From Chloroflexi bacterium CSP1-4 (GTDB taxonomy: Bacteria > Chloroflexota > Limnocylindria > Limnocylindrales > CSP1-4), in the NCBI GenBank assembly GCA_001443375.1, contig LDXM01000012.1, positions 2,089-66,088 on the forward strand: 64,000 bases of DNA. The letters are read 5' to 3'. A model generated the notes under the pieces. The model ran no database searches, had not been told where the DNA came from, and worked only from the letters and a program-made list of their open reading frames with translations. Shown piece after piece: positions 38,724-58,616 of this stretch (position 1 is its first letter; each line of letters opens with the position of its first letter). Both the position numbers and the translations under genes were made by a program.

Positions 38724-38799
38724 TGGTAGGGGAGCCTGGATTCGAACCAGGGACCGGCGGTGTATAAGACCGCTGCTCTAACCGCTGAGCTACTCCCCC
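38724..38799 (-). tRNA. tRNA with anticodon UAU as read (nominally tRNA-Ile(UAU)); 76 nt including the encoded CCA
   Basis: The reverse complement folds as a cloverleaf: GGGGGAG-TA-GCTC-AGCGGTTA-GAGC-A-GCGGT-CTTATAC-ACCGC-CGGTC-CCTGG-TTCGAAT-CCAGG-CTCCCCT-A-CCA. The stems are 7/4/5/5 bp, the T-loop is TTCGAAT, U33 is present, A37 is present, and A73 is the discriminator. Confidence 0.8.
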
Positions 38800-51544: not shown

Positions 51545-52195
51545 TCAGTCGAGGCGGCGGATGACGCCGATCAGCTTCCCCTGGATGCGCACGTCCTCGT
51601 AGACCATCGCCTCGTAGCGCGAGTTCGCCGGCTGGAGGCGGACCTTGCCGTTCTCCTTGAAGAAACGCTTGAGCGTGACGGCGTTCTCCTCGACCTGGGC
51701 GACCACGATGTCGCCGTTGCGGGCCGTCTGCTGGGGCCGGATGACGACGAAGTCGCCGTCCTGGATGTGGGCGTCGATCATCGAGTCGCCGCGCACCTTG
51801 AGCACGTAGGCATCCCCGGCCGGGGCGAGGATCTCCGGCACCGAGAGCGTCTCGCTGGCGTCCTGGTAGGCCTCGATCGGGCCGCCGGCGGCGATCTCGC
51901 CGACGATGGGCAGAACATGGCTCTGCTGCGGTGGCACCTGCGGCAGGAGTTCGCTGGAGAGGCCCGACTGCAGCGCGGCATGCGGCGTCAGGCGGATGGC
52001 GCGCGAACGCGTGGCGCCCCGCTCGAGATAACCATCACGCTCGAGCGCCTCGAGGTGGTGGTGCACCGCCGAGGTCGAGGCGAGGCCGACGGCCTGCGCG
52101 ATCTCCCGGACGGAGGGCGGGTAGCCCCGTGCCCGGAGCGTGGCGGCGATGTGGTCGATGATGCGCTGCTTGCGGGTGGCGTCGTGTCTCGTCAC
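51545..52195 (-). CDS. lexA: LexA repressor
   Basis: N-terminal wHTH LTRKQRIIDHIAATLRARGYPPSVREIAQAVGL. The S24 peptidase motifs are ...VRGDSMIDAHI (catalytic Ser)...KRF, with the cleavage region VPIVGEIAAG. Confidence 0.9.
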   Translation of the reverse strand: MTRHDATRKQRIIDHIAATLRARGYPPSVREIAQAVGLASTSAVHHHLEALERDGYLERGATRSRAIRLTPHAALQSGLSSELLPQVPPQQSHVLPIVGEIAAGGPIEAYQDASETLSVPEILAPAGDAYVLKVRGDSMIDAHIQDGDFVVIRPQQTARNGDIVVAQVEENAVTLKRFFKENGKVRLQPANSRYEAMVYEDVRIQGKLIGVIRRLD

Positions 52196-52217: not shown

Positions 52218-52231
52218 GCACGGTACCGAAC
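52218..52231. promoter_or_regulatory. LexA operator (Cheo-type SOS box) CGAACGTCTGTTCG between lexA and the divergent DUF1232 gene
   Basis: The sequence matches the Gram-positive/actinobacterial consensus CGAAC-N4-GTTCG exactly. It lies about 23 nt upstream of the lexA ATG (coordinates +/-1). Confidence 0.7.
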
Positions 52232-52257
52232 GTCTGTTCGATTGTCAAGCCCCGGGG

Positions 52258-52797
52258 ATGGCGCGGGAGTCGGCGCCCGATATACTCCACGCTCCGATGC
52301 CCCGCTCTCGTCGTGCCGGCCCCGCCCGTGGCCTGTTCCGGACCCTCAACTACCTCGCCTTCGTGCCGCTCGCGTCGCGCGCGCCGATGTACGGTCGGCT
52401 GCTCTGGTCGCTCCTGCGCGACGAGCGGATCCCGACCGCCCGGAAGGCGATCCTCGGCCTAGCGGCCGGGTACCTGGCGTCGCCGATCGACCTCGTGCCG
52501 GACTTCGTGCCGGTGCTGGGGGCGCTCGACGACCTGGCCGTCGCCGTCCTGGCCATCGACCTCTTCCTGGAGAGCGTGCCCGACGCGCTGCTCGAGGAGA
52601 AGCTCGTGGAGCTGGGCATGGACCGGTCGGCGCTGGAACGCGACATGAGCCAGGTGCGGCGCCTCGTGCCGCGCCCGGTGCGCCGGCTGGTCCGGCGGTT
52701 GCCCGATCTCGTCGATGGTGTCGGAACCCTCGTCCAGCGCAGCGGCGTGGAGCGCCGGCTGCGCACATGGATCCTGAAGGAGGAACGCTCCGCGTGA
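52258..52797 (+). CDS. DUF1232 (YkvA-like) membrane protein
   Basis: PIDLVPDFVPVLGALDDLAVAVLAI is the DUF1232 signature. The start may be Met at 52258 or 52297. Confidence 0.7.
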   Translation: MARESAPDILHAPMPRSRRAGPARGLFRTLNYLAFVPLASRAPMYGRLLWSLLRDERIPTARKAILGLAAGYLASPIDLVPDFVPVLGALDDLAVAVLAIDLFLESVPDALLEEKLVELGMDRSALERDMSQVRRLVPRPVRRLVRRLPDLVDGVGTLVQRSGVERRLRTWILKEERSA

Positions 52798-53357: not shown

Positions 53358-54602
53358 GTGAAAGCCACGCCGCGTCCGGCACTCAGTTTCGCGGAACTCT
53401 ACCGCCGGCTGCCCACGCCGCGATCGGCTGACGATCTCGAGCTGGGCGGGCTGCTCGGGCTCAGCCTGTTCCTGCTCATCGTCCTCTCGGGGCGCGACCT
53501 CGACCTCCTGCCCAGCCCCGTTCGACTGGCGCTCGTGCTGAGCTGGCCGATCGTCGTCTACGCCTTCGTGGTCAGCGGTCGGGCATCGATCCCGGTCGCC
53601 TACATCGTCCTCGGGGCGATCGGTCTGCGCCTGAACGAGCTCCAGGGCTATGGCGGCTCCGACGTCCTGGACTCCGTGTTCGAGGCGATCGGCGTGCTGC
53701 TGGCCGGCAGCTCCCCGTACGGCCACTCGTACACCATGACCCAGCCACCCGGCTCGCCGATGCCCTACCCGCCGGCGACGCTGCTCCTGCACCTGCCGGG
53801 CCACCTCCTCGCCGGCAAGGACGGCGTCTTCTACAACGAGGCGGCCACGGCAGGCGTGGTCATCGCCGCCCTCGTCGCGCTCGCGGCGCGGGTCTCGTGG
53901 ACGCTGGGTCTGCCCGCCCTGGCTGCCTACGCCGCCCTCGGCAACCTCGTCTACACCTCGGCCGACGGCAGCAACGACACGAGCACCGGGGCCATGCTCC
54001 TGCTCGCCGTGCTGGCCGTGGCCTGGGCCTGGGACGGCGGCTGGGACGGGCAGCGCGTGCGCATCGCCGGGCTCGCCGCGGCGCTGGCGCTGGCGACGAA
54101 GCAGTCGAGCCTCTTCGTCGTCGTGCTCCTCGCCATCGCCGTGTGGCAGATGGCCGGGCGTCGGAGCGCGGCCCTGTATGTCGGCGCGGCCGGTGTCCTC
54201 CTGCTGGCGTTCTCGATCCCCTTCCTGCTCCTGGGTCCGGTCGAGTACGTGCGCAGCCTGACCGCCTTCGCGGGCGTGCACGAGGACATCTATGGCTGGA
54301 CCATCTGGGCCTTCGCACAGGGGATGGGCTGGCCGGTCCTCGACGTGCCGGAGGCGCGGCTCGTGAACATCGTGCTCACGCTCGGGGCCCTGCTCGCGGT
54401 CACGCGCTACCGCCTCTCGAGCATCGCCCTGGCCACGGCCTTCGGCGTGCTGGTCACGCTCGTCCTCTTCCTGACCGCGCGCTGGATGAGCTTCGCCTAC
54501 TTCGCCATGGTCACCCCGATCATCCTGGTCTTGCCGCTCCTCGCCGCGTGGGCGGCCCGCGGACCGACGACACCAGTGGAGCCGAAGTCGGAGGTCGCCT
54601 GA
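53358..54602 (+). CDS. polytopic membrane protein, putatively a GT87/DUF2029-like glycosyltransferase
   Basis: 414-aa protein with about 10 TM segments and no cytoplasmic catalytic domain. The family assignment is tentative. Confidence 0.55.
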   Translation: MKATPRPALSFAELYRRLPTPRSADDLELGGLLGLSLFLLIVLSGRDLDLLPSPVRLALVLSWPIVVYAFVVSGRASIPVAYIVLGAIGLRLNELQGYGGSDVLDSVFEAIGVLLAGSSPYGHSYTMTQPPGSPMPYPPATLLLHLPGHLLAGKDGVFYNEAATAGVVIAALVALAARVSWTLGLPALAAYAALGNLVYTSADGSNDTSTGAMLLLAVLAVAWAWDGGWDGQRVRIAGLAAALALATKQSSLFVVVLLAIAVWQMAGRRSAALYVGAAGVLLLAFSIPFLLLGPVEYVRSLTAFAGVHEDIYGWTIWAFAQGMGWPVLDVPEARLVNIVLTLGALLAVTRYRLSSIALATAFGVLVTLVLFLTARWMSFAYFAMVTPIILVLPLLAAWAARGPTTPVEPKSEVA

Positions 54603-55855
54603 TGGCCGGCCCCACGATCCTGCACGTCGATCTCGACGCCTTCTTCGCGGCGGTCGAGCAGCGCGACAGACCCGAGCTGCGCGGCAGGCCCGTGATCGTG
54701 GGCGGCGGGGGACCGAACGACCGCGGCGTGGTGAGCGCCGCCTCCTATGAGGCCCGTGCCTTCGGCGTCCACTCGGCGATGCCGCTGCGCACGGCCGGCG
54801 CGCTCTGCCCGCGGGGCGTCTTCCTGCCCGTGGACGGCGCGAAGTACCAGCGTGTGAGCCGGCAGGTGATGGCCATCCTGCGTCGCTTCACGCCGCGCGT
54901 GGAGCCCGTCTCCATCGACGAGGCCTTCCTCGACGTGGCCGGCTCGGAGGCGCTCTTCGGGGACGGCGAGACCATCGCCCGCGCCATCAAGGACGCCATC
55001 CGCTCCGAGCTGGAGCTGACGGCCTCGGTGGGCGTGGCCGGCACGAAGCTGGTGGCCAAGATCGCCTCGGACCTGCGCAAGCCAGACGGCCTGGTGGTCG
55101 TGCCCCTCGGCGAGGAAGCGGCCTTCCTGGCGCCCCTGCCCATGGCGCGGCTGTGGGGCGTCGGGCCGCAGACACGCCTGGCGCTGGCCGACTACGAGGT
55201 GCGCACCATCGGCGACCTGGCCGCCCTGCCCGCCGACGTCCTCGTGCGCCGTCTGGGACAGCACGGCGCCGAGCTGGCGGCCCGGGCGCGGGGCATCGAC
55301 CCCTCACCGGTCTCCGACGGCGCCGACCCGAAGTCGGTCAGCCACGAGCACACCTTCACCGTCGACACGCACGACCCCGACGAGATCGAGCGCACTCTCC
55401 TGGCCCTGGCCGAGGGAGTGGGCGGCCGGCTGCGCGCCTCGGGCCTGCGGGCGGCGACGATCTCGGTCAAGGTGCGCGACGAGCACTTCGAGACGCGCAC
55501 TCGCCAGCGCACGCTCGAGGAGCCGACCGACCAGACCGAGACGATCTGGCGCACCGCCCTCGAGCTGGCCCGGCCCGAGGTCCGCGGACGGACGATCCGC
55601 CTGCTCGGCGTGGGCGCCTCGCACTTCGGGGAGCGCCAGCAGCTGGGCCTCTTCGAGACGGGCGATGAGCGGCGGCGGCGGGTCACGGAGGCGGCCGACG
55701 AGATCCGTCGGCGGTTCGGGTCACGCGCCATCACCCGCGCGCGACTCCTCGGCAGCCGCGTGGCCGAGCCCTTCGAGCGCGACCCCATGACCGCGCCCGA
55801 CGCCCGTCGCGTGGGCCGGGTGCGCCGGGATCCGGGCGCCGATGGATCCGCTTGA
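54602..55855 (+). CDS. dinB: DNA polymerase IV (Y-family translesion polymerase)
   Basis: ILHVDLDAFFAAVEQRDRPELRGRPVIVGG...SIDEAFLDV...is followed by the little-finger domain. The start overlaps the upstream stop (TGATG; +/-1 nt). Confidence 0.9.
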   Translation: MAGPTILHVDLDAFFAAVEQRDRPELRGRPVIVGGGGPNDRGVVSAASYEARAFGVHSAMPLRTAGALCPRGVFLPVDGAKYQRVSRQVMAILRRFTPRVEPVSIDEAFLDVAGSEALFGDGETIARAIKDAIRSELELTASVGVAGTKLVAKIASDLRKPDGLVVVPLGEEAAFLAPLPMARLWGVGPQTRLALADYEVRTIGDLAALPADVLVRRLGQHGAELAARARGIDPSPVSDGADPKSVSHEHTFTVDTHDPDEIERTLLALAEGVGGRLRASGLRAATISVKVRDEHFETRTRQRTLEEPTDQTETIWRTALELARPEVRGRTIRLLGVGASHFGERQQLGLFETGDERRRRVTEAADEIRRRFGSRAITRARLLGSRVAEPFERDPMTAPDARRVGRVRRDPGADGSA

Positions 55856-55881
55856 CATCGTACATCCGTTCGATTTAGGAT
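55852..55881 (+). promoter_or_regulatory. sigma-A-like promoter TTGACA-18-TAGGAT immediately after the dinB stop
   Basis: Read directly in the sequence. The predicted TSS is about 55888, overlapping the SOS box. Confidence 0.4.
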
Positions 55882-55892
55882 GCACCCCATAC

Positions 55893-55906
55893 CGAACAGA
55901 CGTTCT
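55893..55906. promoter_or_regulatory. second LexA operator-like site CGAACAGACGTTCT at the predicted TSS of the 93-aa gene
   Basis: 13 of 14 positions match CGAAC-N4-GTTCG. It lies 35 nt upstream of the ATG at 55941. Confidence 0.55.
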
Positions 55907-55940
55907 CCCGCTACGCCCCCGGAAAGGAGCCGTGGCCGAT

Positions 55941-56222
55941 ATGGCGATGGTGCGCATCAGCCCACTGGAAGTCCACGTCCGCACCGACTGGTTCGACGGC
56001 CGGCCGCGGAGCATCCGCATCGCCCAGGCGACCGTCCCGGTCGTGGCCGTCGAGGCCGTCCGCGAGGAGTCGGCAGCCTACCCGGCCGCGACCGGGCCGC
56101 GGACCCTGTTCCGTGTCCTCACCCCCGCGGCCCGATACGCCCTCACCTACGAGCATGGGCGTCGGCGCTGGTTCGTCGAGGCGCTGGACCCCGACGTCAG
56201 CGCTCGGCCCGCGGCGGCCTGA
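55941..56222 (+). CDS. hypothetical 93-aa protein, predicted SOS-regulated
   Basis: A strong GGAAAGGAG RBS lies 11 nt upstream of the ATG. Translation is MAMVRISPLEVHVRTDWFDGRPRSIRIAQATVPVVAVEAVREESAAYPAATGPRTLFRVLTPAARYALTYEHGRRRWFVEALDPDVSARPAAA. The track ORF starts earlier at 55842. Confidence 0.55.
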   Translation: MAMVRISPLEVHVRTDWFDGRPRSIRIAQATVPVVAVEAVREESAAYPAATGPRTLFRVLTPAARYALTYEHGRRRWFVEALDPDVSARPAAA

Positions 56223-56355
56223 TCGTCCACAGGCCGTCCACAGCCCCCGGTATGCATCGTCCGCCTTGGGGATACATCTGGTGGACAGGTCTCTTTCGGC
56301 GGGGCCGCACCCGGCCGCACCATTGAGGCGTCCCTGAACCCGCCCTGGAGTCGCC

Positions 56356-57714
56356 GTGTCCCTCGACCGCCTTCCGCCGCAGTCCATCGAGGCCGAGCAG
56401 TCGGTCCTCGGCGCCCTGCTCATCGACAAGGACGCCGTCATCGAGGTCGCCGAGTTCCTGCGCGCGGACGACTTCTACCGTGGCCACCACGGCACGATCT
56501 ACGCCGCGGTCCTCGACCTCTACGAGCGGCGCGAGCCGGTGGACCTCGTCACCGTGTCGGAGGTCCTGGAGCGGAACGGCCACCTCGACGCGGTGGGCGG
56601 CTCAGCCTACCTGACCAGCCTCATCAACCTCACGCCGACGGCCGTGAACGCCGTCCACTACGGACGGATCGTCGAGCGCAAGGCGGTGCTGCGCAACCTC
56701 ATCGCCGCCGCGGGGCGCATCGCCGGCATCGGCTACGAGGAGACCGCGGACGTCTCGGCGGCCGTGGACCGTGCCGAGCAGGAGCTGTTCGCGGTCAGCC
56801 AGAAGCGCATCGAGGCTGGCTTCAGCCCGCTCAAGGCCCTGCTCCACTCCGCCTATGACCGGCTGGACTACCTGCACCAGCACAAGGGCGAGATCAGCGG
56901 CGTCAAGACCGGCTTCAAGGATCTGGACACGCTCACGACCGGCCTCCAGCGGTCGGACCTCATCGTCCTCGCGGCGCGACCCTCGATCGGCAAGACGAGC
57001 CTCGCGCTCAACATCGCCGAGCACGCCGCCGTCCGCGAGGGCAAGACAGTGGGCATCTTTTCGCTCGAGATGAGCAAGGAGCAGCTGGTCCTGCGCCTGC
57101 TCAGCTCGGTGGCCAACATCGACTCGCAGCGGCTGCGCACCGGTTTCCTCGAGGAGATGGACTTCACGCGCCTCGCGCCTGCCATGAACAACCTGGCCGA
57201 GGCGCCCATCTACATCGACGACACCCCGAACATCAGCACCATGGAGCTGCGCACGAAGGCCCGGCGCCTGCAGGCGGAGGCCGGCCTGGACATGCTCGTG
57301 GTGGACTATCTCCAGCTCATGCAGTCGACCATCCAGTCGCGCGACGCCAACCGCGTGCAGGAGGTCTCGGAGATCACGCGCGGCCTGAAGAGCCTCGCCC
57401 GGGAGCTGCAGGTGCCGGTCGTGGCGCTCTCGCAGCTCTCGCGCCAGGCGGAGATGCGCGAGTCGAAGGAGCCGCGCCTCTCGGACCTGCGCGAGTCGGG
57501 CTCGATCGAGCAGGACGCCGATCTGGTCATCTTCCTGTGGCGCGAGAAGGATCACGGGACGGAGGAAGCCGACGCCGACGGCGAGGTCGTCAAGCTCAGG
57601 CTGGCCAAGCACCGCAACGGGCCCACGGGCGAGCTGGCGCTCTGGTTCAAGAAGCGCCAGACCCGCTTCATCAGCTACGCGGACTCGGAGCGCTTCGCCG
57701 AGGAATACGCCTAG
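56356..57714 (+). CDS. dnaB: replicative DNA helicase
   Basis: 452-aa protein with the N-terminal domain EAEQSVLGALL, the Walker A motif ARPSIGKTSLALNIA and the RecA-like motifs. There is no intein. Confidence 0.9.
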   Translation: MSLDRLPPQSIEAEQSVLGALLIDKDAVIEVAEFLRADDFYRGHHGTIYAAVLDLYERREPVDLVTVSEVLERNGHLDAVGGSAYLTSLINLTPTAVNAVHYGRIVERKAVLRNLIAAAGRIAGIGYEETADVSAAVDRAEQELFAVSQKRIEAGFSPLKALLHSAYDRLDYLHQHKGEISGVKTGFKDLDTLTTGLQRSDLIVLAARPSIGKTSLALNIAEHAAVREGKTVGIFSLEMSKEQLVLRLLSSVANIDSQRLRTGFLEEMDFTRLAPAMNNLAEAPIYIDDTPNISTMELRTKARRLQAEAGLDMLVVDYLQLMQSTIQSRDANRVQEVSEITRGLKSLARELQVPVVALSQLSRQAEMRESKEPRLSDLRESGSIEQDADLVIFLWREKDHGTEEADADGEVVKLRLAKHRNGPTGELALWFKKRQTRFISYADSERFAEEYA

Positions 57715-58616
57715 CTCTGCTCGTCGGGCAGCAGCGGCCGCAGCGAGATCGTGTACGGCGCGCGGTCCGGCCCGAAGACGCCGACCGCGAACAGGCCGCC
57801 CTGCGGCGCGTCGGAGAGCGCCATCGCCTGGTCGGGGGTCAGGACGGCGACCCGGACGCCGAACTCGCCCTGGGCCACGAAGTCGTCCAGCGTCAGGTCT
57901 CTCCACGGCCAGTCGAGGCCCTCGCCGATCTGGGCACCCTCGTTGAGGATGGCCCGATACGCTGTCGGCTCGTAGAGGCCGGCATCGGTGGCGTTGCCGC
58001 GCCTGACCTGGGTCCGGAAGTCCGCCAGCAGCTCGTAGAGGCGGGCCATCTTCGCCAGCTGGGGCGCGTCCGGGTCGGTCGGGTCGTCGGCGATGCCGAG
58101 GGCCTGGACGCTGACCGTCTTCGCCACCGCATCCGTGACGATGGTGAAGACCGTGTCCGGCGCGTCCATGACGCGGTTGTTGAGGTACTGCTCGCGTGCG
58201 GCCTCCAGGCCGCCCGCGCTGAGCGCAAAGGCGAGCAGCGCATCGACCTGCTCCGCGTTCATCTTCGCGACCCCGAGCGGCGGCGGTCCGGCCGCCAGCC
58301 CGGCGTTCGGATCTGCGGGCAGCTCGTAGATGGCCGTGCCGTCGCCGTAGAGGCTGAACTGCGGCGTCCGAGTGACGAGGAAGGTGGGGGGCACGAACCC
58401 GCCGGCCTGCTCGACCCGCAGGATCAGGGTGTGCGGGTCGGTCGAATGGCCGATGGCCTGTGAGGCTGCCGGCGTCGCGCTTGCGCCGGGGCTGGGCGAG
58501 CCGCTCGGACCCGGAGTCCCGCTTCCGCCGGAAGTGCACCCGGCCAGGGCGATCACCAGGAGGAGGGGCAGGGCGAGATGGGCAGTGCGGGCAGAGCCCC
58601 GCGGTCGGGTCAGCAT
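57711..58616 (-). CDS. hypothetical lipoprotein
   Basis: Start at Met-187 of the track ORF (58616): MLTRPRGSARTAHLALPLLLVIALAGCTSGG (lipobox), followed by a Ser/Pro/Gly linker. The upstream 186 codons of ORF 57711..59174 overlap the divergent zinc-ribbon gene and look non-native. Confidence 0.6.
   Translation of the reverse strand: MLTRPRGSARTAHLALPLLLVIALAGCTSGGSGTPGPSGSPSPGASATPAASQAIGHSTDPHTLILRVEQAGGFVPPTFLVTRTPQFSLYGDGTAIYELPADPNAGLAAGPPPLGVAKMNAEQVDALLAFALSAGGLEAAREQYLNNRVMDAPDTVFTIVTDAVAKTVSVQALGIADDPTDPDAPQLAKMARLYELLADFRTQVRRGNATDAGLYEPTAYRAILNEGAQIGEGLDWPWRDLTLDDFVAQGEFGVRVAVLTPDQAMALSDAPQGGLFAVGVFGPDRAPYTISLRPLLPDEQS

Follow-up and report, generated by a model that had tools for sequence, protein, structure and literature searches.

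A small gene with paired LexA-type operators beside dinB in Limnocylindria, and the likely kinship of its product with the C-terminal domain of ImuB

Organisation of the locus

The window analysed here, to which all coordinates refer, is a 64-kb, high-GC (72%) stretch of contig LDXM01000012.1 of Chloroflexi bacterium CSP1-4. This study concerns a small gene within it, a coding sequence of 93 codons plus a stop codon on the forward strand (55941..56222; stop at 56220-56222), whose 93-amino-acid (93-aa) product ends in -AAA and which is probably an SOS gene modulating mutagenesis. Its place between dinB and dnaB and close to lexA had been recognised in an earlier examination of the letters alone (hereafter the sequence-only reading), and Pfam bears out the identity of these neighbours. 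Upstream lies dinB, encoding a Y-family polymerase of the Pol IV type (54590-55855, + strand; IMS, 6.5e-53; IMS_C, 2.3e-28), downstream lies dnaB (56356-57714), and lexA (51545-52195, - strand; LexA_DNA_bind and Peptidase_S24), whose product has its cleavage site between EIAA and GG, is 3.7 kb away.

The gene has a promoter of its own, in which a -35 hexamer TTGACA (55852-55857, +) is followed, after an 18-nt spacer, by a -10 hexamer TAGGAT (55876-55881, +). This is the sole sigma-70-like site in 54000-58000, where shuffled sequences lead one to expect 0.1. The sequence-only reading had placed this promoter immediately after the dinB stop codon; the promoter is indeed there, with the correction that the TGA of dinB (55853-55855) is embedded within the -35 hexamer. 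There is therefore no room for a terminator at that point, and read-through from dinB may add to transcription from the SOS promoter. No terminator-like site was found between the 93-aa gene and dnaB. The ribosome-binding site GGAAAGGAG (55921-55929, +), 11 nt 5' of the ATG at 55941, and the 93-codon open reading frame (ORF) were likewise found as first described.

Two LexA-type boxes bracket the -10 hexamer. Box 1, CGTACATCCGTTCG (55859-55872), which had been missed by the sequence-only reading, occupies the spacer between -35 and -10 and has one mismatch to CGAAC-N4-GTTCG. Box 2, CGAACAGACGTTCT (55893-55906), is the Cheo-type SOS box that the same reading had reported as overlapping the predicted transcription start; the box is present, but it lies just downstream of that start, at about +5 to +18, and begins 12 nt past the -10 hexamer. 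A perfect box, CGAACGTCTGTTCG (52227-52240), between lexA and the divergent DUF1232 gene provides an internal calibration of the operator motif.

Conservation of the 93-aa family

The 93-aa ORF is a real and conserved small gene. GC content at its three codon positions is 0.75/0.57/0.90, and substitutions relative to its homologues fall mostly at third positions; in the comparison with one relative (L011) they number 8/8/40, with 30 codons showing only synonymous changes and 14 showing non-synonymous ones. Purifying selection thus acts on the gene. A word-indexed search recovered 223 clusters (90% identity) of 86-97 aa, and a profile search of the full library gave 163 representatives at 50% identity, which comprise the same narrow family together with fragments and frameshifted calls. 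A second subfamily, 30-45% identical in protein sequence, adds approximately 700 more clusters at 90% identity. The conservation that the sequence-only reading had made one touchstone of its proposal is thus seen at the species level, the family being encoded in at least 208 GTDB species-representative genomes.

Nearly all of the 80 loci listed carry the labels Limnocylindria, Limnocylindrales, Chloroflexota or Chloroflexia. A few bear odd labels (Gaiellaceae, Verrucomicrobiia, Saccharimonadales and Methylomirabilota), which we take as binning or labelling noise. A tblastn search of plasmids with a family member gave no meaningful match.

The start codon is fixed by the conserved N-terminus, MA[MLF][VI]R (MAMVR in the window). 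Among the residues that vary hardly or not at all are P22, R41, E43, G52, P53, R54, R75, R76 and W77. Five apparent long fusions among the matches (P0175, P0186, P0205, P0208 and P0235) were set aside as Arg/Pro-rich out-of-frame artefacts rather than true domain fusions.

Conserved LexA-type operators

The exact motif GAAC-N4-GTTC occurs only twice in the window (0.45 expected), at the lexA promoter (52228-52239) and in box 2. A strict pattern of TTGAC, box, -10 and box is found at 71 of the 87 related loci, and most of the others have the same layout by eye or longer leaders. In the relatives the -35 hexamer reads TTGAC[A/G/T] and the -10 hexamer TAnnnT or CAGGAT, both at the same relative positions as in the window. 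Box 1 is in most of them a perfect CGAAC-N4-GTTCG in the same place, box 2 is near-invariant in both subfamilies as CGAACAGACGTTCT or AGAACAGATGTTCT, and the ribosome-binding site is conserved as CCCCGGAAAGGAGCC. The order of -35, box 1, -10 and box 2 is thus kept even in the second, 30-45% identical subfamily. Three 12-kb loci (L090, L092 and L094) contain only three boxes each, namely lexA's own, upstream of lexA, and these two.

The GAAC-N4-GTTC palindrome is bound by LexA of Firmicutes and Actinobacteria, and Chloroflexi use a variation of it, as summarised in PMC4951493 (citing Fernandez de Henestrosa 2002). In the present loci the palindromes are placed so as to occlude the promoter, and the bracketing of the -10 hexamer by two operators implies tight repression. 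LexA control of the 93-aa gene, as first proposed by the sequence-only reading, is very likely, because the two operators are conserved class-wide and the same motif stands upstream of lexA in the same genomes. LexA binding and induction by DNA damage are what we infer from these conserved motifs.

A leader of 50-90 nt separates box 2 from the ATG in most relatives (L001, L019, L026, L036, L037 and others). Directly after box 2 it contains a hairpin, GTCGCC...GGCGAC, with a nearly invariant loop motif GTGCCCC. RNAalifold found no convincing consensus in the relatives' leaders. The hairpin specified by hand is moderately supported, with 77% of cells paired and double changes at four of seven pairs, above slid controls. 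It is absent from the window (55907-55940), having been lost in the window's clade.

Linkage with dinB

It is with dinB, rather than with the lexA promoter or dnaB, that the 93-aa gene has a conserved linkage. A dinB gene lies upstream on the same strand in 90 of the 96 loci, at a median gap of 140 bp; most of the six loci without it do not reach far enough upstream, and in one (L009) a transposase gene has been inserted. Other DNA has entered between the two genes at 19 loci, with neither gene lost, and the spacer seems to be a hot spot for insertions. The inserts include a PIN-domain gene (L004, 4368-4688), a 168-aa ORF (L008, 4232-4738) and a transposase-like gene with HTH_29/HTH_32 matches (L009, 571-1899). 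In all three of these loci the promoter has stayed with the 93-aa gene.

The genes downstream vary by clade. Most genomes have FTCD_C-folD-fhs there, whereas dnaB follows only in the small clade of the window (L010-L014 and L086), where dinB and the 93-aa gene have been inserted into the usual rplI-dnaB neighbourhood; a functional linkage with dnaB was rejected on this ground. A linkage with the folate genes was also set aside, as they are absent from the window's clade and are separated from the 93-aa gene by an opposite-strand formyltransferase gene in L092. Whereas lexA is within about 4 kb in the window, the second subfamily has the genes in one string, lexA-(alkZ-like)-dinB-93-aa gene, the gene between lexA and dinB belonging to the AlkZ-like DNA glycosylase family (L090, 3728-4684; L094, 3614-4546).

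A box scan found no LexA box belonging to dinB itself. In the window's clade an ORF encoding a 414-aa multi-pass membrane protein (53358-54602, +) lies between rplI and dinB and overlaps the dinB start by 13 bp; dinB may therefore share a transcript with DUF1232-rplI, driven from the LexA-boxed promoter divergent from lexA.

Resemblance to the C-terminal domain of ImuB

Predictions make the 93-aa protein soluble, basic and all-beta. Its highest Kyte-Doolittle value over 19 residues is 0.87, its grand average of hydropathy -0.1 and its isoelectric point (pI) 10.2 (family median 10.4). The AlphaFold model has seven beta-strands (4-15, 22-27, 30-33, 36-43, 54-60, 65-71 and 76-83) at a mean predicted local distance difference test (pLDDT) score of 85.

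The sequence-only reading had found no recognisable family for the protein. This is true at the normal thresholds of Pfam, NCBIfam, PHROGs and PADLOC, at which neither the 93-aa protein nor 27-86 family members had a match, and a sequence-profile search of the PDB gave nothing below E 0.7; it does not extend to profile-profile comparison, which suggests a link of the family to ImuB-C. The domain is one of some 80-90 mostly beta residues without a related solved fold. The sole recurrent weak Pfam match is DUF6504 (PF20114), which 12 of the 86 members show (best E 0.011). Scattered weak matches to Peptidase_S6, DUF5818, CysW permease and REase_II were judged to be noise. A literature search on DUF6504 returned no papers.

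What DUF6504 represents was examined with the ImuB proteins of three annotated imuA-imuB-dnaE2 cassettes from plasmids. The profile matches the last 75 or so residues of two of the three, 428-500 of the 504-aa Rhizobium ImuB and 419-495 of the Roseomonas ImuB, and it also labels fragments annotated as 'protein ImuB'; DUF6504 is therefore ImuB-C. ImuB proteins themselves score only 19-24 bits against it. The ImuB-C domain was defined by Aravind et al. (2013) as beta-rich, with a conserved C-terminal Trp and basic residues (PMC3765255), and a 2026 survey models it as a beta-barrel of novel fold in contact with DnaE2's PHP domain and with ImuA (PMC12926913).

When the family (27 or 86 sequences) was compared by hhalign with an alignment of 18 ImuB-C sequences, a probability of 59-62% was obtained (P between 7.5e-5 and 9.2e-5), and the 76 collinear columns span both domains. 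In these columns grP lies opposite D.PP, V34 opposite the V of RV, PRT.F.V opposite RDYF.V and RRW opposite RWFLHG, so that P, V, R, F, V and W at conserved positions find their counterparts. W77, which falls on the Trp in the RWFLHG motif of ImuB, is invariant, as is R41, and at least 90% of the 86 sequences keep R54, R75 and R76, matching the published ImuB-C signature (PMC3765255). With a hidden Markov model (HMM) of ImuB-C, 149 of the 242 members of the family scored at P<0.01 compared with 29 of 242 shuffled or reversed controls, and the reverse test gave 34 of 120 compared with 7 of 105 controls. The predicted strands of an ImuB-C fragment (AlphaFold2; 6-11, 21-24, 27-41, 54-62, 67-73 and 86-91) coincide in pattern with those of the 93-aa protein, and both models have a loop at about 42-53. 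Each of these lines is weak but they are concordant, and together they make membership of the ImuB-C superfamily quite probable. A reading of GPRTLF as a clamp-binding motif was rejected, as it sits within a predicted beta-strand.

The partner polymerase

In the DinB of the window the catalytic DLD and SIDE motifs are intact in translation, and the polymerase is apparently active. Its tail carries QLGLF at residues 351-355 (55640-55654, +), which we take to be the beta-clamp-binding motif by the established QL[SD]LF consensus; QLxLF is conserved in the DinB tails of relatives. Next comes a RecA-NT-like motif, DERRRRVTEAADEIRRRFGSRAITR, at residues 359-383 (55664-55738, +). A profile built from 76 distinct DinB tails aligns to residues 4-29 of E. 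coli RecA, the RecA-NT oligomerisation motif, at 6.5 bits (independent E-value 5e-4), with none of 200 shuffles scoring as high; the likeness is suggestive only. Beyond it the tails have an extra conserved segment, APFERDP or RRFDFGEKP (AEPFERDP in the window), which could be a docking site.

Polymerases that partner standalone ImuB-C proteins carry a RecA-NT-like motif (PMC6511836). Taken together, dinB and the 93-aa gene reproduce the order of ImuB (polymerase, clamp motif, RecA-NT-like motif, ImuB-C), split over two genes.

The C-terminal Ala-Ala

The family proteins end in -AA in 245 of 274 cases and in -A in 259 of 274, although the preceding five to ten residues are variable. For ClpX of E. 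coli a free -AA at the C-terminus is the core signal, both in the ssrA tag and in the LexA N-terminal fragment released by self-cleavage, and the LexA of the window, cleaved between EIAA and GG, would leave -IAA. The rule for such C-terminal ClpXP signals was worked out in E. coli (Neher et al. 2003, as given in PMC10584840; PMC3159453). By the ssrA and LexA-fragment rules, the conserved -AA of the present family points to clearance of the ClpXP type and is treated here as a putative ClpXP degron.

Interpretation and alternatives

The reading that best accounts for these observations, to which we assign a probability of about 0.62, is that the 93-aa protein is a highly divergent, free-standing beta-barrel of the ImuB-C type (DUF6504 superfamily) forming a functional pair with the DinB encoded upstream. 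In the undamaged cell, LexA dimers on the two operators that bracket the -10 hexamer would hold the gene off; upon DNA damage, RecA-stimulated cleavage of LexA would open the promoter. The beta-barrel would then join DinB, probably with RecA seated on the RecA-NT-like motif of the polymerase, and by analogy with ImuB-C in ImuB and UmuD' in Pol V it would be an accessory subunit without catalytic activity, by which the translesion polymerase is recruited, positioned or licensed where forks have stalled. Under the rules known for the E. coli ssrA tag and LexA fragment, the Ala-Ala would mark the protein for degradation by a ClpXP-type protease, so that the module is dismantled once LexA re-accumulates. 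The physical complex and the proteolysis are thus, like LexA binding and induction, steps that we infer.

Several points tell against this interpretation. The window protein had no match in Pfam even at E<=10, and even P0179, the member that does best against DUF6504, reaches 16.4 bits, short of the gathering cutoff of 24.2 bits. The hhalign comparison leans positive, but its probability of about 60% is below the usual 90%, and the ImuB-C alignment behind it is narrow (mainly alphaproteobacterial; number of effective sequences 2.5). Standalone ImuB-C proteins such as GSU0042 were compared by description rather than by sequence. The RecA-NT motif of the DinB tail is detected neither by Pfam (hmmscan, DUF4113) nor by BLASTP, and ImuB itself does not end in -AA, which leaves the degron idea without precedent in its family. 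The gene has its own promoter instead of forming a simple operon with dinB, so the protein could act independently of DinB. The organisms are uncultured and are known here from their sequences.

Such independence is the core of an alternative along the lines proposed by Aravind et al., in which an ImuB-C-like or novel protein recognises DNA that is damaged or single-stranded and brings in several repair systems, its adjacency to dinB reflecting shared regulation and not a stable complex. The separate promoter without translational coupling to dinB, the high pI (about 10.2-10.4) with conserved arginines, the 19 loci at which DNA was inserted without loss of either gene, and the occurrence of standalone ImuB-C near Ku/ligase, SplB photolyase and SRAP, for which a role as DNA-binding sensor was suggested (PMC3765255), all fit it. 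It is nevertheless rather unlikely, since the order of dinB and the 93-aa gene is extremely well conserved in two subfamilies while the other neighbours change, since the conserved extra segment of the DinB tail (APFERDP/RRFDFGEKP) could be a docking site, and since AlphaFold models put ImuB-C in contact with proteins (DnaE2 PHP and ImuA) and not on DNA (PMC12926913). Of similarly low probability is the idea that the resemblance to ImuB-C is mere fold-level convergence, or very distant, and that the gene encodes an SOS 'timer' subunit which is specific to the class and has no characterised equivalent. It would then be a doubly LexA-repressed, ClpXP-cleared beta-barrel that switches Pol IV between an accurate and a mutagenic mode, or between a clamp-bound and a RecA-bound one, a UmuD'-like licensing invented independently in Limnocylindria, or else a soluble checkpoint effector with the replisome as its target.

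A checkpoint function had also been put forward by the sequence-only reading, which offered division inhibitor or mutagenesis modulator as roles; of the two, the modulator fits, while the analogy with division inhibitors is unsupported, for want of a hydrophobic segment, LysM or a SulA match. In its general form this alternative has a small lineage-specific inhibitor of division (FtsZ/divisome) or of replication (e.g. DnaB) made upon LexA cleavage and quickly proteolysed. SOS products that are potentially toxic are typically under such tight repression by two operators, the protein is small and lineage-restricted, its -AA would be consistent with rapid clearance, and the gene lies 3.7 kb from lexA (within the lexA-(alkZ)-dinB-93-aa string in the second subfamily) and directly precedes dnaB in the window. 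We nonetheless hold it to be improbable, more so than the two foregoing. The protein lacks the transmembrane segment or LysM of YneA, ChiZ, SosA, DivS and SidA, has no match in Pfam (E<=10) to SulA, whose fold is RecA-like alpha/beta, is predicted to be all-beta and resembles ImuB-C; its invariant neighbour is dinB and not the lexA promoter, and the adjacency to dnaB is limited to the window's clade, with FTCD_C-folD-fhs downstream in most relatives. The position divergent from lexA is held instead by a gene for a DUF1232 membrane protein (52258-52797, +), which shares the perfect box at 52227-52240 and, by analogy with the position of yneA, sosA, divS and chiZ, is the better candidate for an SOS division inhibitor. 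The arrangement of lexA opposite DUF1232-rplI is kept in the related loci where lexA is seen. The chance that the ORF is spurious, or that its LexA boxes are fortuitous or serve another gene, for instance by read-through into dnaB, is negligible. High-GC DNA does yield many long overlapping ORFs here, and without a terminator-like site before dnaB the SOS promoter could also feed that gene in the window's clade. Against this stand the frame-specific third-position GC of 0.90 with its substitution bias, the homologues, which number in the hundreds and share a fixed length and a conserved start, the confidently predicted fold, and the constancy of the operators beside the 93-aa gene whatever its downstream neighbour. 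Homologues, codon bias and promoter layout effectively refute the spurious-ORF reading.

Other features of the window and related loci

Directly after the stop codon of the 93-aa gene are tandem DnaA-box-like 8-mers, CGTCCACA, 11 bp apart (56224-56242), with an inverted TGTCCACC 40 bp beyond the pair (56280-56287), all within the 133-bp spacer before dnaB. Three such sites thus fall in 64 bp, compared with 31 sites at one mismatch across all 64 kb. The dnaB-adjacent loci L010-L012 keep the tandem pair, which is looser in L013, L014 and L086; the spacer may hold a DnaA-controlled dnaB promoter. The DnaB of L094 (1-893) contains an intein with a LAGLIDADG endonuclease. The window also encodes a tRNA-Ile with anticodon TAT (UAU) at 38724-38799 (-). 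Such a tRNA is uncommon in bacteria, in which AUA is usually read by a lysidine-modified CAU tRNA.

Comparison with known systems

The closest parallel is with the standalone ImuB-C proteins that accompany an active PolY and LexA in the 'PolY-ImuB-C-RecA' module (Timinskas & Venclovas 2019/2026; Aravind et al. 2013), as exemplified by the Geobacter sulfurreducens GSU0042-like protein. Standalone ImuB-C was described as 'most frequently combined with DinB', often with LexA (PMC3765255), and modules of active PolY with standalone ImuB-C, among them the damage-inducible lexA-imuB-C-polY operon of Geobacter, were described by Timinskas & Venclovas (2019; PMC6511836). Both those proteins and the present one are non-catalytic and all-beta, of about 90 aa, with a C-terminal Trp and basic residues; both are encoded next to a DinB-type polymerase and near lexA, with LexA-type control (predicted for the present gene) and a RecA-NT-like motif in the polymerase (tentative in the present DinB), and neither has a related fold in the PDB. 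The window protein differs in being so divergent that DUF6504 misses it, homology being indicated by profile-profile comparison (about 60%). Whereas Geobacter is reported to have a single lexA-imuB-C-polY transcript, here the polymerase gene comes first, and a separate dual-operator promoter stands between it and the imuB-C-like gene. The C-terminal Ala-Ala is conserved here, and the family is confined to one uncultured class of Chloroflexota that goes without mention in the portions of the ImuB-C accounts cited.

With the ImuA-ImuB-DnaE2 mutasome the family shares, through the C-terminal domain of ImuB, a full-length collinear alignment, the predicted order of strands and the SOS context. [quoted passage not shown] This suggests that the ImuB architecture can exist in split form beside a polymerase that is catalytically active. 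In many bacteria standalone ImuB-C proteins are predicted to partner error-prone polymerases, although none of these proteins is known to have been characterised in biochemical terms, and the present locus offers a clean natural case, in which an apparently active DinB with clamp and RecA-NT-like motifs, an ImuB-C-like protein, a double-operator promoter and a putative degron occur together and are conserved across Limnocylindria, an abundant uncultured class of soil and freshwater. It would also extend the ImuB-C superfamily beyond present Pfam detection, and hypotheses follow on the timed gating of Pol IV-type mutagenesis by operator strength and proteolysis.

UmuD' of Pol V and YolD/YqjX are likewise small, LexA-controlled, all-beta subunits beside a Y-family polymerase, one with a RecA-NT-like motif such as the present DinB may have, and the proteolytic control of UmuD/UmuD' by ClpXP and Lon parallels the putative -AA degron. 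Unlike them, the 93-aa protein has no Pfam match to Peptidase_S24 or to the SH3-like domain YolD and no self-cleavage site of the Ala/Cys-Gly type, and its partner is of the DinB rather than the UmuC type. SulA, YneA, ChiZ/Rv2719c, DivS, SosA and SidA are, like it, small, lineage-restricted, LexA-repressed and probably short-lived; it differs from these inhibitors in having no membrane anchor, LysM or SulA fold, in not being divergent from lexA and in its invariable tie to dinB. The proposal that the gene encodes a novel SOS effector loses force through the remote homology to ImuB-C (DUF6504) and through the standalone form beside DinB and LexA, of which there are computational descriptions from 2013, 2019 and 2026 (PMC3765255, PMC6511836, PMC12926913). 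What is new in comparison with these systems is the dual-operator promoter of its own and the conserved Ala-Ala, not a new category of SOS effector.

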